Source: an uncultured virus (IMG/VR IMGVR_UViG_2597490124_000004) (taxonomy: Duplodnaviria; Heunggongvirae; Uroviricota; Caudoviricetes). From it: DNA of 20,000 bases. Below, piece after piece: positions 1 to 20,000 of this stretch. Numbering within the stretch: the first letter of the stretch is position 1; every line of letters starts with the position of its first letter. The notes beneath the pieces were generated by a model. That model saw nothing but the letters and a program-made list of their open reading frames with translations. It had not been told where the DNA came from and did not search any database. A program made the translations under genes and the position numbers. Location of the stretch: IMG/VR virus record IMGVR_UViG_2597490124_000004; one strand, 5' to 3'.

Positions 1-27
1 GGCTGGCAACTGCACCGTCAAAATCAC
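1..27 (-). CDS. 5' start of the next phage gene (GTG, MILTVQLPA...), truncated by the window edge
   Basis: GTGA overlap with the stop of 24..446, the coupling pattern used throughout this operon. Only 9 codons are visible. Confidence 0.4.
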
Positions 28-446
28 TGGCAATTTGCATCTCCCATCTTTCGAGCCCGTACCGGCTCCCATTCCTCATATGCCCGATCCCACGTTGCGA
101 CCTTCTCCATGCGTGGCGCCGGGCCAAAGTCGAGCCAGTAATGACAAGGTCCGCATCCGGGCACGGTGTACTCGTGCTTCGCCTTGATCCCGGCGCCCTT
201 TCCATGCTTCGACTGGTTCGAGTGACAATCGACGACCGATTCATGCGACCACCCAATCGAACAGCAGACGCCCGGCACGCGGAGGTAGCATTCCTCGCCG
301 CGGCAAGCCGCCAAATACTTCAAGCCCTCGGCAACCGTCACCCTCTTGATCCGGCTCACGATCGCCTTCTGACGCTTCAGCGTCGCCGTTCGCGTCAGGC
401 TGCTGAACGGCGAATGCGGCTTCCGCTTGAACCCAGTTCGTTTCAT
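24..446 (-). CDS. DUF1364/YbcO-like HNH-type nuclease domain protein
   Basis: CYLRVPGVC...CHSNQSKHGKGAGIKAKH...GCGPCHYWLD Cys/His pattern. The ATG at 446 overlaps the upstream stop (ATGA). Confidence 0.75.
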   Translation of the reverse strand: MKRTGFKRKPHSPFSSLTRTATLKRQKAIVSRIKRVTVAEGLKYLAACRGEECYLRVPGVCCSIGWSHESVVDCHSNQSKHGKGAGIKAKHEYTVPGCGPCHYWLDFGPAPRMEKVATWDRAYEEWEPVRARKMGDANCQ

Positions 447-817
447 TGATGCCGGCTGCTTTGCTCGCGTGACGCGCACGAACGGATCATTCGATCAACG
501 GCGAGTACCGCGTGCGCGATCGCTGCGCTGCGTTCTCGGTGTTGCTCAGCCGCTCGCTTCAAGATGCGCTCCTGCGGCGACTCCGTCGGCGACGGAAGAT
601 CCTTGAGCACGCAGCGGTACGTGACGGGACGCGAGCCTTCGATCCGTTCAACGCACTTCTTGCCGAGGAGGTTTCGTATGCGCCCCTTCACGGTATCGGT
701 CGTCATCGACGCTTCGTATGCGATCTGCTCAATCGTCAGTCCGCGGCGCCCGGCCTTCCGCTTCAAGCAATCGCAGATCAACCAGTTACCCGAACTCAAG
801 CTCACTGCCTTCTTCAC
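443..817 (-). CDS. Winged helix-turn-helix DNA-binding phage protein
   Basis: GLTIEQIAYEASMTTDTVKGRIRNLLGKKCVER is an HTH followed by a wing. Four-base overlaps with both neighbours. Confidence 0.65.
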   Translation of the reverse strand: MKKAVSLSSGNWLICDCLKRKAGRRGLTIEQIAYEASMTTDTVKGRIRNLLGKKCVERIEGSRPVTYRCVLKDLPSPTESPQERILKRAAEQHRERSAAIAHAVLAVDRMIRSCASREQSSRHQ

Positions 818-1365
818 TCGACCTCCTGAATCGTGATGCCGTGCTCTCGGAGCATCAGCTTTCGTTTAATGACGTAGTCCTTGTTCTTCCGCGTGATGAC
901 CGACTTCACATCCTCGACAACAAGCTCGCCCGCGGAATTGCGATAGGTGAAGTCGGCGACGTATTCGACGGCTCGCTCGATCGAGCCGTCCGAGCGCCGC
1001 TGACGCGCGATCAGCTCGAACTCCACCTGAAGACGAAGCTCGCTGATGTGGCCTGCCTCCTGTTGCCGGCTCAATTCGAACCACCGTGAACGCTCGCGCT
1101 TGCTGTCGAACTTGATGCCGTCGTACTCGCACTTCGTGTTGCGGTACTTCGAGCGCTTCGCCGTCATTGCTGGCGGGAAGATCGGCCTATCGAGGTCGCC
1201 TGAAGCGATCTCGTCGAATTCGGAGTTCGGCTGCTTGCCCGTGCGGCGCGCCAGCTCGCGCTCGGCGAAGCTGCGGCCGGTGGTTCGGTCGTCGCGCACG
1301 CGTGCCGTGCCAACCATCGCCGTACCCTCGGGAACGACGAGCGGCCATGAAGTACGCTTCGTCAC
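814..1365 (-). CDS. DUF1064-family PD-(D/E)XK nuclease-like protein
   Basis: SKYRNTKCEYDGIKFDSKRE...YVADFTY...VVEDVKS...YVIKRKLM signature. GTGA/ATGA coupling. Confidence 0.8.
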   Translation of the reverse strand: MTKRTSWPLVVPEGTAMVGTARVRDDRTTGRSFAERELARRTGKQPNSEFDEIASGDLDRPIFPPAMTAKRSKYRNTKCEYDGIKFDSKRERSRWFELSRQQEAGHISELRLQVEFELIARQRRSDGSIERAVEYVADFTYRNSAGELVVEDVKSVITRKNKDYVIKRKLMLREHGITIQEVE

Positions 1366-2354
1366 GTCGCCTCCTGATCGCGCGGAATGTCGTTGAAGTA
1401 CCGGTAGAGCTGCTCGTAGGTCGCGTTCCCGAAGCGGGCAGCCTCGCGGAGCATTTCCTCCATCGCCTCGCCGGGCCCGTCCGCCTTGACGACGCGCGCC
1501 TTGAAACGCATGAACACTTCGCCGTCGCGCTGCTCGATGCCCAGTTGCTTGCCGCGGTCAGTGACGCCCTGCGCGCTCTTGTGCCAGTCGCTGGGAACGT
1601 CCTGCCCGCTCGTCGCCGTGCCGTCCGGTTTCACCGGGAACAGCCCCGTCCAGCCGCGCAACACCGCTTCGTCGATGCAGTCCGCCGGGGCATGCCCAAG
1701 CTCTCGAAGCTTCTCAAGGCGGCGCAGCGAAACCTTCGCCGCAGGGCGCGTCCACGGCGCCGACTTCTCCGACGCTTTCGCCTCGCGGTGCTCGCACCAG
1801 TCGAGCCATGCGTCGAGGGGCAGCCAGTCGGGCAGTTCGATTGATCGCAGTTCGCCATGCAACGCAACTCGCGGCGCACGCCGCGCGGGTTGATGGTTCT
1901 CTGATGGTTCTATGACGGTTCCTGATGATTCGGGTGCAAAAGCTTTGCACCCTTTAGTGCTGTGATTTGCACCCTTTATGTCGCCAGTTGCACCCTTTAC
2001 GTCGTCGTTTGCACCCTTTCCATTGGGTGCATTTTTTGCACCCTTTGAACCCGACGAAATGGGCGCAAGTTCTGCACCGTTTATCCAGTCCGGATTGATT
2101 CGGTATTCGCGCGTGTTCCCACGCCCGCCCTTCGATTCGCTCACGAGAATCAGCCAGCCGGACTGCTGCATCCGGCGAAGCTGGTACTGCACCGCACGCG
2201 GCGATTGGCGCGTCTTCGCAGCCAGCTTGTCGACGCTCGGATAGATGTGTGTGCCGTCGTCGTGCGAATGGTCCGCGAGTGCCAGCGCAAGAATCATCTC
2301 GCCGCCGCCCTCGGGATAGCGCTCGAACACCGCGTTCATAACCTTGACGCTCAT
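1362..2354 (-). CDS. Phage replication initiator (N-terminal HTH_36-type domain, iteron-containing linker)
   Basis: MSVKVMNAVF...ILALALAD...IYPSVDKLAAKTRQSPRAVQYQLRRMQQSGWL. KGA-repeat linker. GAGGAG RBS upstream of the ATG at 2354. Confidence 0.8.
   Translation of the reverse strand: MSVKVMNAVFERYPEGGGEMILALALADHSHDDGTHIYPSVDKLAAKTRQSPRAVQYQLRRMQQSGWLILVSESKGGRGNTREYRINPDWINGAELAPISSGSKGAKNAPNGKGANDDVKGATGDIKGANHSTKGCKAFAPESSGTVIEPSENHQPARRAPRVALHGELRSIELPDWLPLDAWLDWCEHREAKASEKSAPWTRPAAKVSLRRLEKLRELGHAPADCIDEAVLRGWTGLFPVKPDGTATSGQDVPSDWHKSAQGVTDRGKQLGIEQRDGEVFMRFKARVVKADGPGEAMEEMLREAARFGNATYEQLYRYFNDIPRDQEAT
1932..2082. repeat. Iteron array, probable phage replication origin
   Basis: TTGCACCCTTT at 1945, 1967, 1988, 2009 and 2036, a variant CTGCACCGTTT at 2072, and inverted GGG(T/C)GCA at 1932, 2025 and 2061, all inside the initiator gene. 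Confidence 0.8.
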
Positions 2355-2361
2355 AGGCTCC

Positions 2362-2511
2362 TCAGTGCCCGCACGGCAGCTCGCCGCGAGCGTCAGTCTT
2401 TGCGCCACACGACAAACACATGCGCTCGGTAGCCACGCGAGCCGTTACTGCGTCGGGCGTCATTTCGCCGGCGTGCGCCGGGCCTGCTTCTTGGACGTCG
2501 GTCGGATTCAA
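2362..2511 (-). CDS. Small Cys/His protein (49 aa; ...CLSCGAKTDARGELPCGH)
   Basis: TTG start overlapping the upstream TGA, with GGAGG at 2517-2521. Fills the gap between operon genes. CxxC...CGH possible zinc-binding motif. Confidence 0.6.
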   Translation of the reverse strand: MNPTDVQEAGPAHAGEMTPDAVTARVATERMCLSCGAKTDARGELPCGH

Positions 2512-2768
2512 GACGTCCTCCCAAGAGTCAAGCGATAGGCGCTCGGCTGGCCGGGCCGGCGCGTAACGCGCAGCACGCCGGCTTCCTCCAATGCGCGGAG
2601 GGCGGACGACACCGTGACGCGCGTAACGCTCGCGAACTCGGCAATGTCGTCGATTGACGGATCGCAATTCCCCTTCTCATCGGCCAACCTCGCCAGAAAG
2701 ATCAGGATCACCTTGGCCGTCGGCGGGAGCTGCTCACGCATAGCGCGGTTGAGGTACTCAAAACTCAT
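2508..2768 (-). CDS. Stand-alone HTH_36-type winged-helix protein
   Basis: TAKVILIFLARLADEKGNCDPSIDDIAEFASVTRVTVSSALRALEEAGVL. ATGA coupling to the ParB gene. Confidence 0.75.
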   Translation of the reverse strand: MSFEYLNRAMREQLPPTAKVILIFLARLADEKGNCDPSIDDIAEFASVTRVTVSSALRALEEAGVLRVTRRPGQPSAYRLTLGRTS

Positions 2769-3586
2769 TCGGCAGCCTCCTGTGCGCTTTCCGCGTCATC
2801 GATGCCGAGCACCCACCGCAGCGCCGCCAAGCGCTCGCCCGTCGCCTCCGTGAGCGCCGCCTCGATCTGCTTACGCGAGCGCACGCGTGCCGCCGTACCG
2901 CCGAGCACGGCCTTCTGCGCGCGCGAACGCGCGTGCCCTTCCTTGCCTTCCGCCGCGTCGATCAGCGCCTGAACCTTCGCGCGTTGCTCGTCCGGAGGCA
3001 GCTTCGCGAGCTTCAGCGCGTGCGACACCGTGATCTGTTCCGCTTCGACGGCGTCGCGCACCGCCATGCAGCAGTCGAGCAACTTCAACGCGGCACGCAC
3101 AGTCGGCACCTCGACGCCGAACGCGACAGCGATTGCGTCCTCGGTATGGCCGACGTCGAGCATGCGGGCCATCTTCTCGGCCCGGTTGATCGGCGAGTCC
3201 TCTTCGCGGATCTCGTTCGTGCTGACCATCATTCCGACGAACGACTTGCCGCTGTCGCGCATGACGCGTTTCGGGATCGCCGGGATCGTGATCGGCTCTT
3301 CGCCTGCCTCGATCAGCAGGCGATTCAGCTCGCGCGCGTTGATCACGCGGCGGCGGCCGTCGATCACGAGGTTCTCGCCCGTCTCCGGGTCTTTGTAGAA
3401 GAGCACCGGCTCGAGCACGCCCTGCGCGCGATAGTTCCGCACCGTTTTCGGGTTCGGCGCCTGATGTACACGCCGGTCGTACAGCGGGTGCTTCGGGTCC
3501 GTGACGAGCGTCAGCTTGTCCGGGTCCATCGAAAGGACGTTGCCCTTGCCTGATGCCCCGTAGACGTCGATCGAGTTCTTCGCCAT
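2765..3586 (-). CDS. ParB/RepB/Spo0J-family protein
   Basis: QGVLEPV...VIDGRRRV (ParB/Srx box), NEIREEDSPINRA, then an HTH (EDAIAVAFGVEVPTVRAALKLL). Confidence 0.85.
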   Translation of the reverse strand: MAKNSIDVYGASGKGNVLSMDPDKLTLVTDPKHPLYDRRVHQAPNPKTVRNYRAQGVLEPVLFYKDPETGENLVIDGRRRVINARELNRLLIEAGEEPITIPAIPKRVMRDSGKSFVGMMVSTNEIREEDSPINRAEKMARMLDVGHTEDAIAVAFGVEVPTVRAALKLLDCCMAVRDAVEAEQITVSHALKLAKLPPDEQRAKVQALIDAAEGKEGHARSRAQKAVLGGTAARVRSRKQIEAALTEATGERLAALRWVLGIDDAESAQEAAE

Positions 3587-3592
3587 GTTGTT

Positions 3593-4990
3593 TTACCTAT
3601 TCGAAAAGCCCGGCTCGCCGAGCAAGAGTGACAATTGCGACCGCAGCTTGGAGCGGTACGACACCATTTCCGACCTGACGGAGTTGGTGATTCCGGGATT
3701 CGTCCACCATGTAGGCCAACCCATCAGCCAGCATGCGAACGCCGGGTTCAATCGCCGGCGCAAGGTCCGGTCGGTTGGCGATAATTCGCGGCCATCGATC
3801 ATCGATTGGACCGGGCGCAAAGAGGTCGAGAAATCCGCCGCCTGCCCGGCAAGCACCATCCCGTGACCGTTCCCGTGACTCGGCGCCGACTTCGTAGTCC
3901 GGTTGCTGTTTTCGCTGCTCGTTGGCGTCGCCCATTGCGACACCTGATCTTTCAGGCCGGGATTTGCGCCTTGCACCTGCCGACTTGCGCTGCCCGAGTC
4001 GCTGCCGTTCGTCGCCATCGATGCACGAGGCGTTGCCCAATGGCGCGTTTCCGACTCGAGCCCGACCTGTCGCTTGCCGTTCGCCGTCTTGCCACGTGTC
4101 GCCACCACTTCCGCAGACACAGAGCGCCCGCCGCTCGGAACATTTGGTGTTGACCACTGCGCCGCCATGCTCGGCAACATCGGATCGCCCGAACTGTCGC
4201 GCTGATTCGGACCACCCTTCGTGCCATCCGTCCCGCGCGACGTCGGCCATGCGCGGGCCGCTAACGCCAACGTCGGGCGCTCGGCCGCATTCGGCGATGA
4301 CGATCGATTCGTTCGCTCCATCGCATTCGCGTCCGGCGTCGCCCATGTCATCGCCTGCTGACGGATGTTTTGCCCAAACTCGCCGTTGCTGTAGCTGGAC
4401 GTATTGCAGTCGGGCGTCGCCCATCCGCCATGCGAGGCAGAACCAGCGCTCACGCTGATGGCTCCCGCCAACATCGGACGCACGTAGATGCACCCACTCC
4501 GCATCCCAGCCGCGGTCGGCCAGTTCTCCCACGACGCGGGAGGCCGCGCGCTCAACGAGCTCGCCTTCCGTTTCGTCCACAACGGAGGCGGTGGCAGAAG
4601 TGATTCCTGAGACGTTCTCCAAAACGAGGAGCCACGCACCGCAAGCGTCGGCGATATCGACGACGCTGAAAAAGAGACCTGAGCGCCTTCCGTCGAGACC
4701 GGCACGACGTCCGGCAACGGATAAGTCTTGGCACGGGAATCCGGCAACGACGCAATCCACTCGTCCGCGCCACGCTGCGCCATCGAAAGTGAGTAGGTCA
4801 GACCAGACAGGCGCCGGATCAATGGCTCCCGCTTCCATAAGCGCGACAAGTTGCGCGGCAGCAGTGGCTTCGCGCTCCACGTAGCAAACGGTTCGATGTC
4901 CGATTCCAAAATGCTCGAGTGCGGTCCGGACGCCTTCCCCGAGCATGCCGACGCCAGCACAAAGCTCGATGGAATGAAAAGCCACACCAT
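3593..4990 (-). CDS. Overprinted +1-frame ('beta') polypeptide of the C5-MTase: WxTP repeats plus a motif IX-like segment, 465 aa
   Basis: Stop-free for 465 codons. ATG lies 8 nt after GGAGG. Contains RRRLNPAFACWLMGWP (motif IX-like) and repeated W[APS]T[PS]. The true start could be internal. Confidence 0.65.
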   Translation of the reverse strand: MVWLFIPSSFVLASACSGKASGPHSSILESDIEPFATWSAKPLLPRNLSRLWKREPLIRRLSGLTYSLSMAQRGADEWIASLPDSRAKTYPLPDVVPVSTEGAQVSFSASSISPTLAVRGSSFWRTSQESLLPPPPLWTKRKASSLSARPPASWENWPTAAGMRSGCIYVRPMLAGAISVSAGSASHGGWATPDCNTSSYSNGEFGQNIRQQAMTWATPDANAMERTNRSSSPNAAERPTLALAARAWPTSRGTDGTKGGPNQRDSSGDPMLPSMAAQWSTPNVPSGGRSVSAEVVATRGKTANGKRQVGLESETRHWATPRASMATNGSDSGSASRQVQGANPGLKDQVSQWATPTSSENSNRTTKSAPSHGNGHGMVLAGQAADFSTSLRPVQSMIDGRELSPTDRTLRRRLNPAFACWLMGWPTWWTNPGITNSVRSEMVSYRSKLRSQLSLLLGEPGFSNR

Positions 4991-4994
4991 TCAC
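3597..4994 (-). CDS. C5-cytosine DNA methyltransferase, catalytic ('alpha') frame, 465 aa
   Basis: Motif I ELCAGVG, IV GFPCQ, VI ENV, VIII QRERWF and X GNGVVP. No motif IX in this frame. GTG start at 4994 overlaps the upstream TGA (GTG at 4985 is an alternative). Confidence 0.88.
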   Translation of the reverse strand: MNGVAFHSIELCAGVGMLGEGVRTALEHFGIGHRTVCYVEREATAAAQLVALMEAGAIDPAPVWSDLLTFDGAAWRGRVDCVVAGFPCQDLSVAGRRAGLDGRRSGLFFSVVDIADACGAWLLVLENVSGITSATASVVDETEGELVERAASRVVGELADRGWDAEWVHLRASDVGGSHQRERWFCLAWRMGDARLQYVQLQQRRVWAKHPSAGDDMGDAGRECDGANESIVIAECGRAPDVGVSGPRMADVARDGWHEGWSESARQFGRSDVAEHGGAVVNTKCSERRALCVCGSGGDTWQDGERQATGRARVGNAPLGNASCIDGDERQRLGQRKSAGARRKSRPERSGVAMGDANEQRKQQPDYEVGAESRERSRDGACRAGGGFLDLFAPGPIDDRWPRIIANRPDLAPAIEPGVRMLADGLAYMVDESRNHQLRQVGNGVVPLQAAVAIVTLARRAGLFE

Positions 4995-5437
4995 ACCGCC
5001 TCCCAAAGGAGCTTTTGGCCGCGTAGATGTGCAGCCGTGTCGACTCGCGGTCGTGATGGCGTGTTCCAGTTGCCACCACCGCGCGCACCCACGAGCCGCC
5101 ACCCGGCTCCGCGAAGACTCGGCCCGCCCTCGTCGGGCAGCGTGTATGTGATCAGGCGTCGATAGCCGAGTGCGCGAGCGGCACGCCACGCGGCGGCATA
5201 GAGTGCGGAGCACGCGTTACGTGTTCCGTCGGTGCAGCAACGCGTGACCTCCAACGTGAGGCCGTTGTCATTGCCGCGAGCAACCGGTCGCCCGACAATC
5301 GCAACACCTCGAATGGCCTCGTTGACTGCGACTGCGACACTGAACTTGTGGCCGATCACGGGCCGATGATGGCGGTGGTGAATCGAAACGAACGCGTTCG
5401 CCTCTTCAAGCGTGATCGGCGTGACGATAAGGCTCAT
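4991..5437 (-). CDS. XF1762-family protein, Mom-like GNAT fold (putative DNA-modifying acyltransferase)
   Basis: PITLEEANAFVSIHHRHHRP...GVAIVGRPVAR...LEVTRCCTDGTRNACSALY...LITYT...SLRGAGW. The family was recognised by eye and the function is inferred. Confidence 0.7.
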   Translation of the reverse strand: MSLIVTPITLEEANAFVSIHHRHHRPVIGHKFSVAVAVNEAIRGVAIVGRPVARGNDNGLTLEVTRCCTDGTRNACSALYAAAWRAARALGYRRLITYTLPDEGGPSLRGAGWRLVGARGGGNWNTPSRPRVDTAAHLRGQKLLWEAV

Positions 5438-5441
5438 TCGG

Positions 5442-5882
5442 TTACTCGGCCATACCGCGCAGCCGCGCGGAAATATCGAGAAGCACCTGCGCATGCTTGA
5501 AAATTCGGTGATCCACGCGCTCAATCTCGTGCCGCTCGACGCGCCCGTCTTCAAGCGTCTTAACGATCTCCTGCCCGACGTCGCCATGCGTCGACCACGC
5601 CTTGCCCATCAGTTCGACGATCGCGGCGTCGCAGCAGTCCACAGCGCTCGGCAACTTCACGAGCGCATAACCCCGCGCCGTAGCCCACGCTTCGAGCATC
5701 CGATCGTCGTCGGTCACGTCCGTCGCGCGAACCGCGTCAGCGAGCCCGAGGTGATGCGTAGCGTTGTTTGGGTTCACCTTGTTCCGCAGCACCGCCGCCG
5801 ACATACCGAGACGCGGCGCGAGCGACTCACTGCCGCCCGGGTAATCGTGAACAACCGCGTATGCGGCGTCGATGATGTTCAT
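5442..5882 (-). CDS. cII: Phage regulatory protein CII (CP76-like)
   Basis: DYPGGSESLAPRLGMSAAVLRNKVNPN...LEDGRVERHE. GAGGA RBS. Position downstream of cro. Confidence 0.85.
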   Translation of the reverse strand: MNIIDAAYAVVHDYPGGSESLAPRLGMSAAVLRNKVNPNNATHHLGLADAVRATDVTDDDRMLEAWATARGYALVKLPSAVDCCDAAIVELMGKAWSTHGDVGQEIVKTLEDGRVERHEIERVDHRIFKHAQVLLDISARLRGMAE

Positions 5883-7923: not shown

Positions 7924-9213
7924 TTACTTCCTGCGAGGCTGCCAGAGAGAGACAGCAATCAAGCTCACGATGGCCGTTGCGATTACATAGAATGCCGGCG
8001 CAAGATTGTTGTGCGTCGTCGCGATCGCCCAGGTGATGATCGCGGCAGAGAATCCGCCGAACGTGATCACGGCAAGGTTGTACGAAATCGAAATCCCCGT
8101 CGACAACACGCCATCCGGGAACATGTCGCTGAGCGCCGCAAGAATCGGCCCCTCGTAGCCCGCGATCACGAGCCCAAACACGACCTGGAAGAGAAGCAGC
8201 GATTGTAGGCCGGGCTTGGCATTCAGCAGCGCAAACAACGGGTAGGCAGCGAGAATCGCAACAATCAGCGCCCCCGCAAGAAACCAGCGCCGCCCGAATC
8301 GATCGGAAAGGTGTCCAACGACGGGCGTAATGAACAAGACAATCGACGCGCCCACGAGCACCGCGATAAAACCCGTCGACGAAGCAAGCTTCAGAACCTT
8401 CGTTGCGTAGGTCGGGATGTAGAACAGCAAAACATAAGAGCACACCGTCCAGAAGACAACCAGACCGAATCCAACCAGTGCCTCACGAGAAAAGCTCCTG
8501 ACAACCTCGACTACTGGAGCGTGCCCTCCCTCGCGCCCGTCAGCATGGACGCCGGGTTCATTTAGCCTGCTGCGGATGTAGATGCCAACTGGGCCGAGCC
8601 CGAGCCCAAGCAGAAAGGGAATACGCCAACCCCAAGACTCAATCTGATGCTGATCGAGGCACTTCACGATAAACACCGCGAGAACAGACGCAAGGATAAT
8701 CGCGAAGCCGATACTCGCCTGAATCCAACTCGTGTAGTAGCCGTGTCGCTCAGCAGGCACGCGCTCCCGAAGGTACGCTGTCGCGCCTCCCATCTCACCG
8801 CCAGCCGAGAACCCCTGTAGCAAACGCGCGACGACGATCATCAATGGCGCACCGAGCCCGGCGTCGTTGTATGTCGGCGCGAAGCCGATCATCGCTGTCC
8901 CGACAGTCATCAGAGCAATAGTGACGGTAAGCGCCGTGCGGCGCCCTACTTTGTCTGCAATTCCGCCGATTACGATGCCACCAACAGGGCGCATAAAGAA
9001 ACCCACACCGATCGTGGATACCGACAGCAGTAAGGAAAGGTTATCGTCGGTAGATGGGAAAAACAGTTTCGCGATAATGACGGAAAAGAAACTGTACGAA
9101 ATGAAGTCGAACCACTCGAAACCATTGCCAACGATGACGGCAATGACCGCCCTCATATGTGCGTCGGCGCCCGCGCCCCGCGTGGCCCCACGCGCGTACG
9201 TTGATGATTGCAT
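7924..9213 (-). CDS. MFS transporter, metabolite:H+ symporter (ProP/CitA-like) family
   Basis: GNGFEWFDF, GFFMRPVGG, ADKVGRR, RLLQGFSAGGEMGG, WGWRIPFL, SDRFGRR. About 12 hydrophobic segments. Confidence 0.93.
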   Translation of the reverse strand: MQSSTYARGATRGAGADAHMRAVIAVIVGNGFEWFDFISYSFFSVIIAKLFFPSTDDNLSLLLSVSTIGVGFFMRPVGGIVIGGIADKVGRRTALTVTIALMTVGTAMIGFAPTYNDAGLGAPLMIVVARLLQGFSAGGEMGGATAYLRERVPAERHGYYTSWIQASIGFAIILASVLAVFIVKCLDQHQIESWGWRIPFLLGLGLGPVGIYIRSRLNEPGVHADGREGGHAPVVEVVRSFSREALVGFGLVVFWTVCSYVLLFYIPTYATKVLKLASSTGFIAVLVGASIVLFITPVVGHLSDRFGRRWFLAGALIVAILAAYPLFALLNAKPGLQSLLLFQVVFGLVIAGYEGPILAALSDMFPDGVLSTGISISYNLAVITFGGFSAAIITWAIATTHNNLAPAFYVIATAIVSLIAVSLWQPRRK

Positions 9214-9367
9214 TTTTTCGTGCCCTCGGATTTTTGAGTTATTACGATCATCGAACAAAATTTGATCGTGCACGAAATATTACGACCATTTACGAATTAC
9301 TTACTATGAAAAATTCTCTGTGCAGCCTGACTTACTGGAATGGTGCATGGTGAACCAATCGTCTGAT

Positions 9368-10267
9368 TTATACATGCGTGAGTAACCACTCCCGAAACAT
9401 AGTAACTGCCGGCGTGTCGCGGCGATCCGCGGGCCAGATGACCTGATACGCGCCGCGGAAGCTAGCATGCGCATCCGATGCCAAGACCAATTGCCCGGAC
9501 TGAACCAGCGGCGTGATCATGTGCTTCCAGCCCAGAATCACCCCGTGTCCGCGCAGCGCCAGTTGAAGCAATACTGGATAGCTGTTCGCCGCAATGGTGC
9601 GAGCTGGCCTAAATCCGATCTCGCCGGCAGTCAGGCGAAACCAGTCTCGCCAGCCCATCCACTGGCGTTGTTGCTCCTCCGCGACGAGTAACGTCGCCCC
9701 CATCAGTTCTTGCGGAGGCACGCGATGCCCCCCGAGAAATGCGGGCGCGCAGTAAGCGTAAACGTCTTCCTCGATGATCCTCGTGCCAACAATACCCGGG
9801 GGCGGCACATCTCGGATGTAGTAGACGCCGATATCGAATTCGGCCGCGTTCAGATTGAAGACCCCCTCTCGGACGAGTATCCGTACCGACACTTCCGGAT
9901 GGTCTGCGCTGAATTCAGCGATCCGATCCGCAAGAAACAGCGTCGCAGTACCTGATGCGCATGCAATTGTGATGCTATGCGGCGTCTGCTCTTTCATAAC
10001 AAGCGCGGTTGCCTCGGCGCAGTCAGCCAAAATCGCATGTACTCGGTCCGCGTACTGCTGACCCGCTCGGGTTAGATGCAGCGCTTTAGCATCACGGACG
10101 AAGAGCGTCATCCCAAGAAACGTCTCGAGTTTCACTACCTGCTTACTCACTGCACCTTGCGTCACGCTCAATTCCTCAGCAGCTCGCGTGAAATTGCCGT
10201 GCCTCGCGGCCGCGTCAAAGAAAACAAGGCACTGTAGGGGTGGGAGGGGTTGAATTCTCATGATCAT
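9368..10267 (-). CDS. LysR-family regulator (GcvA-like)
   Basis: LPPLQCLVFFDAAARHGNFTRAAEELSVTQGAVSKQVVKLE...LF.R, 299 aa. GGAGG lies 8 nt before the ATG at 10267. Confidence 0.93.
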   Translation of the reverse strand: MIMRIQPLPPLQCLVFFDAAARHGNFTRAAEELSVTQGAVSKQVVKLETFLGMTLFVRDAKALHLTRAGQQYADRVHAILADCAEATALVMKEQTPHSITIACASGTATLFLADRIAEFSADHPEVSVRILVREGVFNLNAAEFDIGVYYIRDVPPPGIVGTRIIEEDVYAYCAPAFLGGHRVPPQELMGATLLVAEEQQRQWMGWRDWFRLTAGEIGFRPARTIAANSYPVLLQLALRGHGVILGWKHMITPLVQSGQLVLASDAHASFRGAYQVIWPADRRDTPAVTMFREWLLTHV

Positions 10268-10350
10268 GTCCAATTCCTCCCCCGAATTTACCGGCTGATC
10301 TACTTCTTTGCCATGCGCATCCGCTCGCGTCCCCACTCAGCGGCAAAAAA

Positions 10351-14188: not shown

Positions 14189-14541
14189 ATAAGACGCTGA
14201 CGGAGGCGCAGATCAACCGGCGCTGGGTCGAGATCTTGATCGAGACCTTGAGCCTTGAAAAGCCCACTACGATCGGGCCTAACGACGCATCGTGTTTCGT
14301 GAACGCGCTTCGCGGAATTCTCGCCGCTCAGCAGCCGGAGCCGCGCGCCGAGGTGACGAACGACGACAAAGTGTGCGCCGAACGGTATCGGTGGTTGCGC
14401 GAGCGAGCGTGGTACGTCGATGCAGCGACGTACGCGCTCGAGCTTCGCGAGCGCTGGCGCAACGGCGATGAGCCGCCCCCTGATACAGACGATGTCGAAT
14501 GCGCGCTCGACGCCGCCCGCACTCAAGGGAGCCGCACGTGA
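14185..14541 (+). CDS. Hypothetical phage protein (118 aa; AERYRWLR motif)
   Basis: ATGA/GTGA coupling. AERYRWLR...LDAAR pattern typical of lambdoid accessory proteins. Confidence 0.75.
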   Translation: MNKTLTEAQINRRWVEILIETLSLEKPTTIGPNDASCFVNALRGILAAQQPEPRAEVTNDDKVCAERYRWLRERAWYVDAATYALELRERWRNGDEPPPDTDDVECALDAARTQGSRT

Positions 14542-15503
14542 GCGAAAACAGCAAAATCGAATGGTGCGACCACACGTTCAATCCGTGGGAAGGTTGTCAG
14601 AAGGTCGGCCCCGGCTGCGACCACTGCTACGCTGAAGCGCGCAACACGCGTTTCGGTGGCGGCAAGCCCGTCAACTGGGGACCGGGCGCGCCGCGTCGCC
14701 GCACGTCGCCGGCGAACTGGCGCAAGCCGCTCGCGTGGAATGCGGCGCACGACGAGTTCTTCGCCGCGCACGGGCGGCGCCAGCGCGTGTTCTGCGCGTC
14801 GCTCGCCGACGTGTTCGACAACGCAGTCGACCCGGCGTGGCGCCGCGACCTGTTCGACCTTATTGTCGACACACCGAATCTCGACTGGCTCTTGCTCACG
14901 AAGCGCGTTGGAAACGTTCAGCGGATGGTTCAAGCGGCAACCCTATGCGACTTTCTTCCGTCGAACGTCTGGCTCGGCGCGACGATCGTCAACCAGGCCG
15001 AAGCGGATCGCGATATTCCGAAGCTGCTCGCGATGCCCGCGCGAGTGCGTTTCTTGTCGATGGAGCCGCTGCTCGGGCCCGTGGATTTGGCGTCGAGCGG
15101 GGCCCTCTGGTCGGACATGAACGGGAATATCGTCAACGCACCTTCGTGCGGGCTGCGGGGCGTCGACTGGGTGATCGTCGGCGGCGAAAGCGGCCCCGGC
15201 GCGCGTCCGATGCATCCGGACTGGGCCCGCTCGCTCCGCGATCAGTGCTCAGCTGCCGGCGTGCCCTTCCTGTTCAAGCAATGGGGTGAATGGCGCGAGC
15301 CGGTCGACGGTGAGCGCTACGACACGACGATGGGTCGTGCTCAGCGCGTGCCGGCGTTCATCGTCTCGAAGACCGGCACCGTCCATTGCTTCGAGAACGA
15401 TCAGACGCGCGATGGCGGCCGAACGATGCTGCGGGTCGGCAAGCGCGCCGCCGGCCGCCAACTCGACGGCCGCACGCACGACGAATTCCCGGAGACTCTA
15501 TGA
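14538..15503 (+). CDS. Phage Gp37/Gp68 (DUF5131) family, radical-SAM-like protein
   Basis: SKIEWCDHTFNPWEGCQKVGPGCDHCYAE, LLLTKR, RFLSMEPLLGP, DWVIVGGESG, PFLFKQWG. GTG start at 14538. Confidence 0.9.
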   Translation: MSENSKIEWCDHTFNPWEGCQKVGPGCDHCYAEARNTRFGGGKPVNWGPGAPRRRTSPANWRKPLAWNAAHDEFFAAHGRRQRVFCASLADVFDNAVDPAWRRDLFDLIVDTPNLDWLLLTKRVGNVQRMVQAATLCDFLPSNVWLGATIVNQAEADRDIPKLLAMPARVRFLSMEPLLGPVDLASSGALWSDMNGNIVNAPSCGLRGVDWVIVGGESGPGARPMHPDWARSLRDQCSAAGVPFLFKQWGEWREPVDGERYDTTMGRAQRVPAFIVSKTGTVHCFENDQTRDGGRTMLRVGKRAAGRQLDGRTHDEFPETL

Positions 15504-16741: not shown

Positions 16742-16951
16742 ATGGTCGACTCACCTACTCTGATTGCGCCTGCCCCGTACGTCACCGTAGCGCTTGCCGC
16801 CGTGATCACGGGCCTCACCGAGAAAGCCATCCGTCGAAAAATCGAGGACGGAAAGTGGCTCGAAGGTCGCGAGTACCGGCGCTCGCCTGACGGCGGCATC
16901 TTCATTTCCATCAAAGGGTATCAACTATGGGTAGAGCAAGCGGCGGCGTAG
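16742..16951 (+). CDS. xis: Excisionase
   Basis: YVTVALAAVITGLTEKAIRRKIEDGKWLEGREYRRSPDGGIFIS...WVE. Overlaps the int start. Confidence 0.85.
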   Translation: MVDSPTLIAPAPYVTVALAAVITGLTEKAIRRKIEDGKWLEGREYRRSPDGGIFISIKGYQLWVEQAAA

Positions 16952-18105
16952 AAATTCGCACGTCATCCATCCGCCTGAACTTCACACTCGACGGCAAAAG
17001 AGAACGGCAAACGCTGATGCTGAACGGCAAACCGATGCCGCCGACTCCGGCAAACGTCAAGTACGCCCACCGCCTGATCGCCGAGATCGTCGATCGGATC
17101 CGACTCGGAACCTTCAGTTTGGTCGAGTATTTTCCGACCTCTGGAGCACCCAGCACACTGACTGTCGGCGGCTGGCTCGACACCTGGCTCACCGCCCAGC
17201 GAATCGAATCGTCGACGAAAGACGGATACGAGAGCGCCATCCGATTCTGGAAAGCCGCGGCGTGCGACAAGAATCAGAATCCGCTCGGACCGACTCCACT
17301 CCGCAGGTTGAAGTTGAGCCACGTATTGACTGCGATTGCGGGCCGGCCTGACCTGAGCGGCAAAACGGTCAACAATTACGTGTCGGTAATGAGAAAGGCG
17401 CTCGACTTGGCCGTGTCCGACAATGTGTTGACCGACAATCCCGCGGCAAACGTGCCTCGCGCGAAACACCAAAAGCCCCCACCCGATCCGTTCTCCCGCG
17501 ACGAGTCTGAAAAAATCATCCATGAGGCCGAGCGCGCCTATCCCGGACAGGTCCACAACCTCATCGAGTTCTGGTTCTGGACCGGCCTTCGAACATCGGA
17601 GATATTTGGCCTGCAGTGGCTAAATGTGGATTTGCAGAACGGGACCATTCTGGTCGCCGAAGCGCTAGTCCGCGGCGAGCACAAGGATCGAACCAAGACA
17701 GCAGTCGCCCGCACGGTTCGCCTGAACAGCCGGGCGCTAGCTGCATTGACGCGTCAGCGCTCATTCACCCAGATGGCTGGCGCCGCGATTTTTCATGATC
17801 CGCGGTACAGCACCCGGTGGGAGGACGAGCGTGCATTCCGACGAAGCTTCTGGACGCCGATTCTGAAACGACTCGGAATTCGCTACCGTCGCCCGTACAA
17901 CATGCGGCATAGCTACGCGACCGCGATGCTGATGGCCGGAATGACCCCAGCGTTTTGTGCGAAACAGCTCGGGCACAGCATCGAGATGTTCCTGACAACG
18001 TACGCGAAATGGATGGATGGCGAGCAGAACGCTCTAGAGATGGCGAGGCTCGAATCGACGCTATTGTCCCCGAGTTGTCCCCCGCAAAGCAAAACAGGCG
18101 CCTAA
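16927..18105 (+). CDS. int: Tyrosine integrase with N-terminal arm-binding domain
   Basis: GVEIRTSSIRLNF N-terminus. Catalytic TGLRTSE, TKT, YNMRHSYA, QLGHS...TY. Confidence 0.95.
   Translation: MGRASGGVEIRTSSIRLNFTLDGKRERQTLMLNGKPMPPTPANVKYAHRLIAEIVDRIRLGTFSLVEYFPTSGAPSTLTVGGWLDTWLTAQRIESSTKDGYESAIRFWKAAACDKNQNPLGPTPLRRLKLSHVLTAIAGRPDLSGKTVNNYVSVMRKALDLAVSDNVLTDNPAANVPRAKHQKPPPDPFSRDESEKIIHEAERAYPGQVHNLIEFWFWTGLRTSEIFGLQWLNVDLQNGTILVAEALVRGEHKDRTKTAVARTVRLNSRALAALTRQRSFTQMAGAAIFHDPRYSTRWEDERAFRRSFWTPILKRLGIRYRRPYNMRHSYATAMLMAGMTPAFCAKQLGHSIEMFLTTYAKWMDGEQNALEMARLESTLLSPSCPPQSKTGA
18064..18082 (+). repeat. Tandem TTGTCCCC direct repeat, probable integrase arm-type sites
   Basis: TTGTCCCC at 18064 and 18075 (11-bp period), about 50 bp from the tRNA 3' end. 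Confidence 0.55.
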
Positions 18106-18207: not shown

Positions 18208-18261
18208 ACTATTTTTTCTCCGCTTGATTCGCCGCAGTTGGCTCATCAACGAAGAAGCGAG

Positions 18262-18289
18262 ATTATACAAAGGCCGTTTAACTTTGCAA
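18262..18289 (-). promoter_or_regulatory. tRNA-His promoter
   Basis: TTGCAA-16 bp-TATAAT on the - strand, overlapping the dusA 3' end. Confidence 0.8.
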
Positions 18290-19297
18290 AGCCTTTTCTT
18301 CAAAAAAATCTTCCGGAGTCGTCAGGTGCGCGCGCGCCTCGTCGAAGATCGACAGATCGCCGCGCGCAAGACGCTTGCTGTCCGACAGCACGCGGCGCCA
18401 GCCGCGCGCGCCCGCGACGCCGCGATACAGACCGAGCGCATGCCGGACGATCGCGCCGAGATATGTGCCGCGCGCGAGTTCGGTCGCACAGTATTCGACG
18501 AGTTGCGCCTCCACTGCCTCGCGCGTCGGCGCCGGCGTGGCCGCGCCGTAGAAGCGCGCGTCGACGTCGGCGAGCACGTACGGATTGTGATAAGCCTCGC
18601 GGCCGAGCATCACGCCGTCGACGTGCTGCAGGTGCCGCTCGACTTCGTCGAGCGTCGTGATGCCGCCGTTGACGATGATCTCGAGCTGAGGAAAATCCTG
18701 CTTCAGCCGATACGCGTAGTCGTACTTGAGCGGCGGAATCTCGCGGTTCTCTTTCGGCGACAAGCCCTTCAGGATCGCGTTGCGCGCATGCACGATGAAC
18801 ACGTCGCAGCCGGCCGCGGCGACCGTGCCGACGAAGTCGCGCACGAACGCGTAGTCCTCGACCGCGTCCACGCCGATCCGATGCTTGACCGTCACCGGAA
18901 TCGACACCGCGTCGCACATCGCCTTCACGCAATCGGCGACGAGTTGCGGCTCGTTCATCAGGCACGCGCCGAACGCGCCGCGCTGCACGCGCTCGGATGG
19001 ACAGCCGCAATTCAGGTTGATTTCGTCGTAGCCCCAGCGCTCGCCGAGCTTCGCGGAATGCGCGAGATCCGCGGGCTCGCTGCCGCCGAGCTGCAGCGCG
19101 ACGGGCGCTTCGCCGGGCGTGAACGCCAGGTGGCGCGCGACGTCGCCGTGGACCAGCGCGCCCGTCGTCACCATCTCCGTGTAAAGCCACGTGTGGCGCG
19201 AGATCGTCCGATGAAACGAACGGCAGTGGCGATCGGTCCAGTCCATCATCGGGGCGACGGACACTCGGCGTGGACTGAACGAAGACGAGGCAGACAT
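18278..19297 (-). CDS. dusA: tRNA dihydrouridine(20/20a) synthase DusA
   Basis: VAPMMDWTDRHCR, LYTEM, QLGGS, EINLNCGCPSERVQRGAFGACLM, VHARNAIL.GLSPKENREIPPL, GVMLGREAYHNP. Confidence 0.96.
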   Translation of the reverse strand: MSASSSFSPRRVSVAPMMDWTDRHCRSFHRTISRHTWLYTEMVTTGALVHGDVARHLAFTPGEAPVALQLGGSEPADLAHSAKLGERWGYDEINLNCGCPSERVQRGAFGACLMNEPQLVADCVKAMCDAVSIPVTVKHRIGVDAVEDYAFVRDFVGTVAAAGCDVFIVHARNAILKGLSPKENREIPPLKYDYAYRLKQDFPQLEIIVNGGITTLDEVERHLQHVDGVMLGREAYHNPYVLADVDARFYGAATPAPTREAVEAQLVEYCATELARGTYLGAIVRHALGLYRGVAGARGWRRVLSDSKRLARGDLSIFDEARAHLTTPEDFFEEKALQS

Positions 19298-19411
19298 AGG
19301 CAGTACGGAAAAGCGCGGCGGCGCGTGGACAACCGCGCATTTTACCGCAATGCGACCGAAGGACAGGTTCGCGGGACGCGCGGCGCGCCGTTCGCGCTTG
19401 CCGATTCCCAA

Positions 19412-19459
19412 ATGCGAAAGCCCCGACCGCATGACGCAGCCGGGGCTTTCTTTCGCATC
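19412..19459. terminator. Intergenic hairpin (terminator or REP-like)
   Basis: GAAAGCCCCG(19416)...CGGGGCTTTC(19450), a 10-bp inverted repeat. Confidence 0.5.
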
Positions 19460-19745
19460 AGATCCTTTGGCACGAGGAGAAGATGCTTGAACCAGTATAT
19501 TCGACGCGCGCCGCGCGGCACGCCGATTCTTTGTGAATATTTGTATCGCTATTCAAGCGGTCGCGTGCGAGAACCGATCCAATCGGATGGATCGATGCGA
19601 ATACCGCCATCGAAGGTGCGTCGACAGCCCTGCGACACCGACGATGCACCGCCTCGAATCCGATGCCGCGCCCAATCGATTCGCGCCTCGCTCCCGCACG
19701 ATCCGCGCGCGGATCGCCGGCGCAACCGAGTACGGACAAAGCCCG

Positions 19746-20000
19746 TCAAACGACCCCCGCCCCCAGCAGTTCCCGATCGACCGTCGATCGCGCGACGGCG
19801 AGCGTCTGCTCGATTACCCTGCGCTCGCTGAGCAGCAGCCCGTCGATATGCACGAGGCGCCAGTCGATCACGACCGCGCCGCCCTGCAGCACCCGGTAAT
19901 GGGCTTTCTCGCCCGCCCAGAGCTGCTCGGTCTTCACTTCGATGTCGTAGCCCTTGTAAGACTCGCCGAAGTCGCCGATGTCATTGCCTTTCGGTTCCAT
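19746..20000 (-). CDS. Small host hypothetical protein (84 aa; possibly DUF6566-like)
   Basis: ESYKGYDIEVKTEQ...LAVARSTVDREL, with host-like codon usage. The start is at the window edge and may extend further. Confidence 0.65.
   Translation of the reverse strand: MEPKGNDIGDFGESYKGYDIEVKTEQLWAGEKAHYRVLQGGAVVIDWRLVHIDGLLLSERRVIEQTLAVARSTVDRELLGAGVV

Follow-up and report, generated by a model that had tools for sequence, protein, structure and literature searches.

Can one stretch of DNA encode both chains of a methyltransferase, each chain running the full length of the gene? The question is raised by a locus in the 20,000-nucleotide (nt) DNA of the uncultured virus IMGVR_UViG_2597490124_000004 (Caudoviricetes; IMG/VR). 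This whole stretch, here called the window, corresponds to the early region of a Burkholderia prophage resembling phi1026b (92.3% identity over 95% of the query). On its minus strand, two open reading frames (ORFs) of 465 codons each, termed alpha and beta, are read from the same DNA with an offset of 4 nt at both ends. They probably encode a two-chain DNA (cytosine-5) methyltransferase (C5 methyltransferase) of the M.EcoHK31I kind, formed from two same-strand frames that overlap from end to end. This heterodimer reading is preferred because both frames are kept open in related loci and because selection switches from one frame to the other along the gene.

Anatomy of the two frames

Alpha extends from GTG 4994 to TAG 3597 and ends in GAA TAG (3599-3597). 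Beta extends from ATG 4990 to TAA 3593 and ends in AGG TAA (3595-3593); the ORF list gives it as 3593..4990 with 465 residues. Upstream of GTG 4994 the alpha frame stays open to 5213. In the start region the minus strand reads GGAGG (4999-5003), CGGT and then GTGAATG. The parts of the gene are listed below; AlphaFold2 (AF2) confidence is given as the predicted local distance difference test (pLDDT).

3597..4994, minus strand: alpha ORF (465 codons and TAG), predicted catalytic chain with motifs I-VIII and X; PF00145 match, phrog_29583 match end to end, M.HhaI-like model
3593..4990, minus strand: beta ORF (465 codons and TAA) in the +1 frame of alpha, comprising leader, six WxTP modules and motif IX
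4999..5003, minus strand: Shine-Dalgarno-like GGAGG, 4 nt ahead of the alpha GTG and 8 nt ahead of the beta ATG; read from the sequence, with a presumed function
4988..4994, minus strand: GTGAATG, comprising the start codon GTG of alpha (4994-4992), the TGA that terminates the upstream Mom-like gene (4993-4991) and the start codon ATG of beta (4990-4988)
4410..4994, minus strand: alpha residues 1-195, folded catalytic domain on the same DNA as the beta leader; pLDDT blocks of 83-98, alpha-sparing substitutions
4424..4990, minus strand: beta residues 1-189, leader, open with an apparently unconstrained sequence; stop counts, substitutions, low AF2 confidence except for residues 41-80
3825..4409, minus strand: alpha residues 196-390, linker, open, apparently unconstrained and predicted to be disordered; stop counts, pLDDT, substitutions
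3755..4423, minus strand: beta residues 190-412, six WxTP modules, putative target-recognition region; beta-frame selection
3935..4039, minus strand: beta module 5 (35 residues, 105 nt), missing from phi1026b
3596..3754, minus strand: beta residues 413-465, motif IX (RLNPAFACWLMGWPTWWT) and C-terminal helix; columns 99% conserved over 131 loci, pLDDT 71-92
3600..3824, minus strand: alpha residues 391-465 with FAPGP..W, EPGVR.LADG and motif X VGNGVVP (about 3654-3674); the same DNA also encodes beta motif IX
4932-4970, 4728-4742, 4611-4619 and 4440-4457, minus strand: alpha motif I, GFPCQ, ENV and QRERWF, respectively, located in the sequence

An earlier reading made from the letters alone (the sequence-only reading) had described the two 465-codon frames at these positions, the single GGAGG serving both starts, and the upstream TGA that overlaps the GTG and abuts the ATG. 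It had also placed motifs I, IV, VI, VIII and X on alpha and a motif IX-like RRRLNPAFACWLMGWP on beta. The ORF list and the sequence agree with it in all these respects.

Alpha residues 7-209 matched positions 2-180 of the 324 positions of PF00145 (E-value 6.8e-23; 82 bits, cut-off 22). The chain scored below the cut-off of the NCBIfam model dcm (64.5 vs 100.65 bits) and matched phrog_29583 of PHROGs over its full length. It carries LCAGVGMLG, GFPCQ, ENV, QRERWF and, near the C-terminus, VGNGVVP. We take PCQ to be motif IV, ENV motif VI and QxRxR motif VIII, and motifs I and X to be those for S-adenosylmethionine. Residues C88, E126, N127, R181, R183, G442 and G444 were invariant across 126 sequences. 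The AF2 model of alpha reached a mean pLDDT of 67.5 and a predicted template modelling score of 0.62; it was confident for residues 1-195, 391-410 and 431-465, and pLDDT fell below 50 over residues 223-386. The model superposed on M.HhaI (2i9k_A; Z 23.0, root-mean-square deviation 3.4, 228 residues aligned, model 4..465 on chain 10..324) and on M.HaeIII (Z 19.4; Foldseek E-value 1.5e-12). In these monomeric enzymes of solved structure, the large domain including its C-terminal end with motif X is the part that corresponds to alpha. In M.HhaI 228 of 327 residues were matched, and the small domain, which consists of the target-recognition domain (TRD) and motif IX, found no confident counterpart. 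Judged from the model, alpha appears to provide both ends of the large domain with a disordered linker in between. A single-chain enzyme of PF00145 would be expected to carry motif IX and the TRD as well; here, both lie in the +1 frame.

Beta had no match in Pfam or NCBIfam. Its motif IX-like RRRLNPAFACWLMGWP occupies residues 411-426 (3713-3760), and the six WxTP modules start at residues 190, 216, 248, 279, 318 and 353. In PHROGs, beta residues 299-449 aligned to positions 142-298 of phrog_1008 (DNA methyltransferase) and alpha residues 433-459 to positions 293-319 of the same profile, which indicates that the two frames jointly cover what related enzymes carry in one chain. The confident parts of the beta AF2 model were limited to residues 41-80 and 411-460, the latter with the helix of motif IX and a long helix at the C-terminus. 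A similarity search with beta returned 571 proteins at E-values of at most 1e-3 among 8000 candidates scored, many of them spanning 98-100% of the query; none had a precomputed Pfam domain, save a ParB-type domain in fused forms. With a beta profile, 48,926 cluster representatives were recovered at E-values of at most 1e-3 and 11,919 at 1e-30 or less, numbers that may include single-frame relatives. Where the sources name beta-frame products, they are mostly called hypothetical or uncharacterised.

Open frames and frame-specific selection

Related loci were found with beta patterns derived from an alignment of 20 beta relatives. The sample comprised 79 genome loci (187 of 399 pattern matches confirmed, the best 80 kept and 79 fetched) and 80 viral loci (157 of 598 confirmed). 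Three pieces per chain were searched by tblastn against 163 sequences, namely these 159 loci, the window and three phage records. Of these sequences, which are relatives of one another, 159 matched both beta and the N-terminal part of alpha; beta stood in the +1 frame relative to alpha in every one of them (159/159), and both frames were open and nearly coterminous in 131. In the records of phi1026b and of the Acidovorax phages Alfacinha1 and Alfacinha3 both frames were open from end to end. Of the 154 loci that matched the C-terminal part of beta, 134 had the motif X pattern in the alpha frame and one (L141; L numbers denote individual loci) had it in the beta frame; in 19 it was not found.

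Shuffle tests were conducted in which the protein and codon usage of one frame were kept, its synonymous codons were shuffled and stops were counted in the other frame. With the alpha protein kept, the beta leader was stop-free in 121 of 126 loci vs 7.5 expected, and six stops were seen vs 301.8 expected; the third frame contained 561 stops in this region and was open in none of the 126. The leader test omitted 33 of the 159 loci (start pattern failed in 18, locus end cut the region in 9, stop or N in the alpha N part in 6); it also flagged L051 and L083, where the start pattern perhaps chose the wrong codon. With the beta protein kept, the alpha linker was stop-free in 135 of 136 loci vs 9.1 expected (four loci omitted), and the third frame was again never open (0/136). 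In the window itself, the leader remained open in 2 of 200 shuffles and the linker in 0 of 200. On the question posed with the sequence-only reading, whether homologues keep both frames open, the tblastn matches and shuffles indicate that most do. A second sample was chosen regardless of beta and consisted of 80 viral loci obtained through alpha patterns, at 32-44% identity. Here, measured by its longest open stretch, the beta frame spanned 95% or more of the alpha ORF in 58 loci and 80% or more in 79; the third frame always stayed below 50%, with a median of 18%.

These counts bear on a trivial explanation, namely that alpha is the only gene and the second frame is open through G+C-rich composition, or that the layout stems from sequencing error or a decayed gene. 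The G+C content of 0.63 in this region of the window, where long spurious ORFs are common, would favour it. Against it stand the third frame, which is never open, and the persistence of the layout at G+C contents of 0.47-0.49 (L061, L063, L066, L077, L135); below 0.55, beta was open in 11 of 13 loci and alpha in 11 of 11. That the loci are copies of one recent sequence is excluded by the protein identities of 32-44%. Contigs of runs from three studies, perhaps with the window's own source among them, contained the whole 1501-base stretch with neither a difference nor a gap, and a fourth run with another organism label showed 106 substitutions and 0 gaps. The compensating indel errors considered in the sequence-only reading were thus absent from contigs of three studies. 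Sequencing error, pseudogene and composition artefact were rejected on the open-frame counts, the gap-free contigs and the frame-specific substitutions described below, among them the beta-frame constraint on the middle 600 nt; we regard such an origin as hardly credible.

Substitutions between the window and phi1026b were classed by their effect on each frame, with L083 as second comparison. The counts against phi1026b were as follows.

First 585 nt: 53 substitutions; 36 alpha-synonymous and beta-changing, 8 beta-synonymous and alpha-changing, 8 changing both, 1 silent in both
Next 600 nt: 37 substitutions; 6 alpha-synonymous and beta-changing, 25 beta-synonymous and alpha-changing, 6 changing both
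Last 214 nt: 6 substitutions; 2 alpha-synonymous and beta-changing, 2 beta-synonymous and alpha-changing, 1 changing both, 1 silent in both

The comparison with L083 gave the same pattern (alpha-synonymous substitutions made up 27 of 44 in the first part and beta-synonymous ones 42 of 64 in the middle, and the last part held nine substitutions in all). Over the 131 loci, conservation was concentrated in alpha residues 1-195 and 391-460 and in the beta WxTP sites and RLNPxFVEWLMGWPxGW (99%). Taken together, the substitutions and the conservation suggest that selection acts on alpha in the 5' part of the gene, on beta in its middle and on both proteins at its 3' end. The per-frame comparison that had been proposed with the sequence-only reading therefore agreed with two functional frames, substitutions sparing first alpha, then beta and finally both. 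The description as a fully dual-coded gene held for the open frames; it did not hold for function, since beta residues 1-189 and alpha residues 196-390 appear to be passengers which are merely kept open.

The same-codon excess among distant pairs amounted to 1.19 in the beta leader, 1.08 in the alpha linker, and 1.55 and 1.28 in the doubly coded end. Within the leader it peaked at 1.25-1.30 over alpha codons 51-85, where AF2 places helices at a pLDDT of 74-79. A folded leader domain had been considered; this claim was dropped because the leader changes freely between close pairs.

Proposed translation of the two frames

The known precedent is M.EcoHK31I of E. coli, which recognizes YGGCCR (Lee, Kam and Shaw 1995, as described in PMC2836561 and PMC3404938). 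In these descriptions, its alpha chain bears motifs I-VIII, X and the TRD; beta, which carries motif IX, is encoded wholly inside alpha in another frame, and both chains are required (PMC2836561, PMC3404938). By these descriptions, rather than by sequence, the window gene resembles M.EcoHK31I in carrying motifs I-VIII and X on alpha and motif IX on a beta chain in another frame. Unlike the short, nested beta of M.EcoHK31I with a TRD in alpha, as described there, the window frames are coterminous, their starts are adjacent and the variable modules lie in beta; furthermore, each window chain bears about 190 passenger residues. The analogy drawn in the sequence-only reading therefore stands for the two-chain split and fails for a TRD in alpha: the conserved variable region with its six WxTP modules lies in beta, where 25 of 37 substitutions in the middle 600 nt are beta-synonymous. 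The principle is that of M.EcoHK31I; complete overlap, modules in beta and adjacent starts are the three points of difference, as read from the DNA.

The beta start is conserved together with an N-terminus M(x)WLY(I/V)P, replaced by MSWLFSQAL in one subfamily. Among the 131 intact loci, 44 shared the window's own layout NTGA|ATG (alpha start, upstream stop, beta start), 19 had ATGTGG with the alpha GTG two bases inside beta, and 19 had ATGnnATGG with the alpha ATG five bases further, so that these three tight layouts accounted for 82 loci. Another 34 had other layouts, mainly GTGTGG or GTGATGTGG, and the start pattern gave none in 15. Wherever the pattern placed a beta start, an alpha-frame start codon was found at most 5 nt away. 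Such tightly paired starts across loci suggest that one ribosome-binding region is able to feed both frames. The heterodimer with end-to-end overprinting and coupled initiation, which the sequence-only reading had put forward, thus gains support from the open frames, the switching selection and starts no more than 5 nt apart behind one Shine-Dalgarno-like site.

On this basis, ribosomes would reach one Shine-Dalgarno-like site, many of them fresh from terminating the Mom-like gene at its TGA, and would initiate either at GTG 4994 for alpha or at ATG 4990 for beta. Termination at the upstream TGA would leave ribosomes on both start codons and may in this way set the alpha:beta ratio. The beta product would consist of about 189 unconstrained leader residues followed by the six WxTP modules and motif IX, a part that presumably corresponds to the small DNA-recognition domain of single-chain enzymes. 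Alpha and beta chains may associate as in M.EcoHK31I into an active enzyme, which could protect phage DNA from restriction. Each frame would have to stay open while crossing the functional part of the other.

An internal start would be another way to produce beta: it would be real, nested as in M.EcoHK31I and preceded by an untranslated leader. This is consistent with a leader that evolves without protein-level constraint, with one leader stop in each of L009, L020 and L137, and with the nested beta-like ORF of 100-122 residues in the actinophages Saroj and Ailee. An untranslated leader would not stay open in 121 of 126 loci with six stops vs 301.8 expected, however, and the loci conserve the beta start codon together with an M(x)WLY N-terminus. 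In addition, the beta proteins listed by gene callers begin from residue 1 at profile positions 7-8, as do the best matches of the beta profile. We therefore consider an internal start unlikely.

The sequence-only reading had also allowed for two compensating frameshifts that would yield a single chain. If programmed, a +1 shift after motif VIII and a -1 shift between IX and X would restore the order I-VIII, TRD, IX, X in one polypeptide. The functional segments do lie in canonical order along the DNA, Saroj gp68 holds IX and X in one frame, and in L117 and L048-L050 a linker full of stops is followed by an intact motif X part, so that motif X would have to be reached some other way. Two frameshifts leave the open leader (121/126), the open linker (135/136) and the conserved beta start beside the alpha start unexplained. 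In a frameshift gene, the zero frame closes after the shift and the shifted frame is closed before it, whereas here 131 of 159 loci keep the two frames open throughout. At the first junction, neither a stop nor an obvious pause interrupts the alpha frame, and no slippery heptamer was seen by eye in the IX-X interval of the window, for which no systematic scan was run. Moreover, the phrog_1008 alignments end beta at residue 449 and begin alpha at residue 433, the same 50 nt being used in both frames. A single chain by frameshifting is accordingly disfavoured and judged quite improbable.

Several observations weigh against two full-length chains. The beta leader is unconserved as protein, 44 of the 53 substitutions vs phi1026b altering it. 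Its synonymous-site signal is weak (1.19 vs 1.08 in the linker), and being open is the only property demonstrated for it. Single leader stops occur in L009, L020 and L137, and stops in the alpha linker or right after motif VIII, with beta open, in L117, L048-L050 and L141. Beta alone was predicted poorly (mean pLDDT 54.1) and had no match in the PDB, the best Foldseek E-value being 7.2 and a profile search of PDB sequences ending at 0.14, which is chance level. No RNA run was among the listed runs carrying the stretch. Since the sampled loci are mutual relatives, the counts do not represent independent events. The stops in these variants indicate that linker and leader are dispensable as protein. 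Full-length chains are thus the rule and not obligatory everywhere, and the position of the split can move.

Variants, related enzymes and genomic context

The IMG/VR contig L141 has its motif X (RLKAIGNGQCP) in the beta frame; alpha stops right after motif VIII and is closed beyond, and beta overlaps all of alpha. In L117, L048, L049 and L050 stops interrupt the alpha linker (14 in L117), and beta is intact, as are the N part and the motif X part of alpha; translation of the latter may begin at an ATG supplied by a WATP site (MGDA in the alpha frame), or frameshifting may lead to it. A one-base jump of both frames together was seen in mid-gene in L018, L019, L021 and L054, whose C parts keep the +1 relation; it could be due to indels, assembly errors or insertions.

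Mycobacterium phage Saroj gp68 has in one frame a motif IX of the beta type and a motif X of the alpha type, next to xPTP modules and the homologous catalytic part. This arrangement indicates that the beta modules and motif IX belong to the same enzyme as alpha. Saroj gp68 and Gordonia phage Ailee gp4 share with the window gene the homologous catalytic part, xPTP modules, motif IX (RLAAAFPEWMMGWPAGW) and motif X (IIGNGVVP); they differ from it in having IX, X and most of the modules in the frame of the catalytic part, and an alternative-frame ORF of 100-122 residues remains. This conserved ORF comprises 122 residues in Saroj (L163:1529-1897) and 100 in Ailee (L164:1604-1906), follows the pattern MPxPIAxWNP...LPTSGMTRNG...PRATDGTKGGPNQRGSSGDLMLPS and resembles a nested beta remnant or a small subunit. 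Its module in Saroj is identical to window module 3 in 22 of 26 residues. In Ailee (L164:1103-1603), the annotated methyltransferase gene joins two pieces and encloses an HNH endonuclease ORF, and the catalytic frame is still open across the HNH insert (763..2637, 624 residues).

Modules 1 to 6 of the window were seen in 10, 11, 44, 33, 5 and 24, respectively, of the 130 other intact loci, where they recur reordered or recombined (4236, 143, 1243, 2536) with 1 to 7 modules per chain. Module 5 is the sole gap, of 35 residues, in the alignment of the window beta with that of phi1026b. A separate target for each WxTP module is a conjecture. In the DNA of module 3, a stretch of 76-79 nt (window 4171-4249) is 81-84% identical to Mycobacterium and Gordonia phage records, far above the rest of the gene; among the matches listed, 30 records were assigned to these two by organism name.

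Tandem, exchangeable modules recall the multispecific C5 methyltransferases of the Bacillus phages SPR, phi3T, rho11s and H2, which carry several tandem TRDs on a single chain in one frame. By this general knowledge the variable regions are alike; unlike the Bacillus phage enzymes, the window gene uses two frames and two predicted chains. To our knowledge, an overlapping two-frame methyltransferase layout has so far been proven for one E. coli enzyme only, and a very large family of phage genes appears to have it in common. A literature search found no account of the two-frame family; subscription journals and REBASE were outside its reach.

Among the split enzymes, M.AquI (CYCGRG) is divided after motif VIII and has IX and X on its small subunit, and for M.SssI the best complementing C-terminal fragments begin between motif VIII and the TRD (PMC3404938). 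As in this account of M.AquI, the window gene is split within the variable region past motif VIII; its beta differs from the M.AquI small subunit in that the latter bears both IX and X, and the passage at hand in PMC3404938 mentions no long gene overlap. The relative L141 has a split of this M.AquI type, though its beta overlaps the whole of alpha.

A broader reading joins these elements. Within a very large clade of C5 methyltransferases from phages and prophages, interleaved double coding would be the standard design. One start region would split ribosomes between the frames after upstream termination and so fix the alpha:beta ratio. About 190 passenger codons per chain would run across the functional domain of the partner. 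Shuffled WxTP cassettes, each also stop-free in the alpha frame and each with its own target, would yield a multispecific anti-restriction methylase. As a whole, this combination of widespread double coding, ribosome partition, passengers, specific cassettes and anti-restriction is offered tentatively and may well not hold in all its parts.

The genes surrounding the locus are given below.

5442-5882, minus strand: CII-like activator
4991..5587, minus strand: Mom-like DNA modification protein; its stop codon overlaps the start of alpha (phrog_1384, E-value 9.5e-41)
2765..3586, minus strand: ParB-like protein, its ATG (3586) in the beta frame two codons past the beta TAA (phrog_1033, E-value 7.2e-65)
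next in order after the ParB-like gene, minus strand: replication O-like protein, resolvase, HNH endonuclease
16927-18105, plus strand: integrase

In phi1026b (L001:1711-3831), the beta frame has no stop and continues in frame into parB, giving an ORF of 706 residues. Gene callers list beta-ParB fusions of 643-741 residues with a ParB-type Pfam domain, and in one sequencing run an A>C exchange at window position 3595 abolishes the beta stop. Elsewhere in the window, among the large ORFs 7924-9273, 9368-10336, 14499-15503 and 18224-19831, one of 535 residues has no PHROG match, and the others match only PHROGs of unknown function (phrog_2034, phrog_3736, phrog_2045).

Annotation reports one frame at a time, as the sequence-only reading had anticipated. 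The phi1026b record annotates the alpha frame. In the P2-like phages Alfacinha1 and Alfacinha3 (79% DNA identity), the beta frame is annotated and named cytosine-specific methyltransferase. The two-frame layout accounts for this inconsistency. Long overlaps between genes on the same strand are considered rare except in small viruses; here, two frames share 1.4 kb, in a layout that is maintained from Burkholderia prophages to loci at a G+C content of 0.47. The gene represents a natural experiment in two proteins sharing one sequence, in which selection seems to alternate between the frames and unselected stretches are kept as open passage. M.EcoHK31I would become the first studied member of a widespread design and would no longer be a curiosity. 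Methylome prediction for such phages would need to consider both chains, and the array of WxTP cassettes could determine which restriction systems a phage evades.

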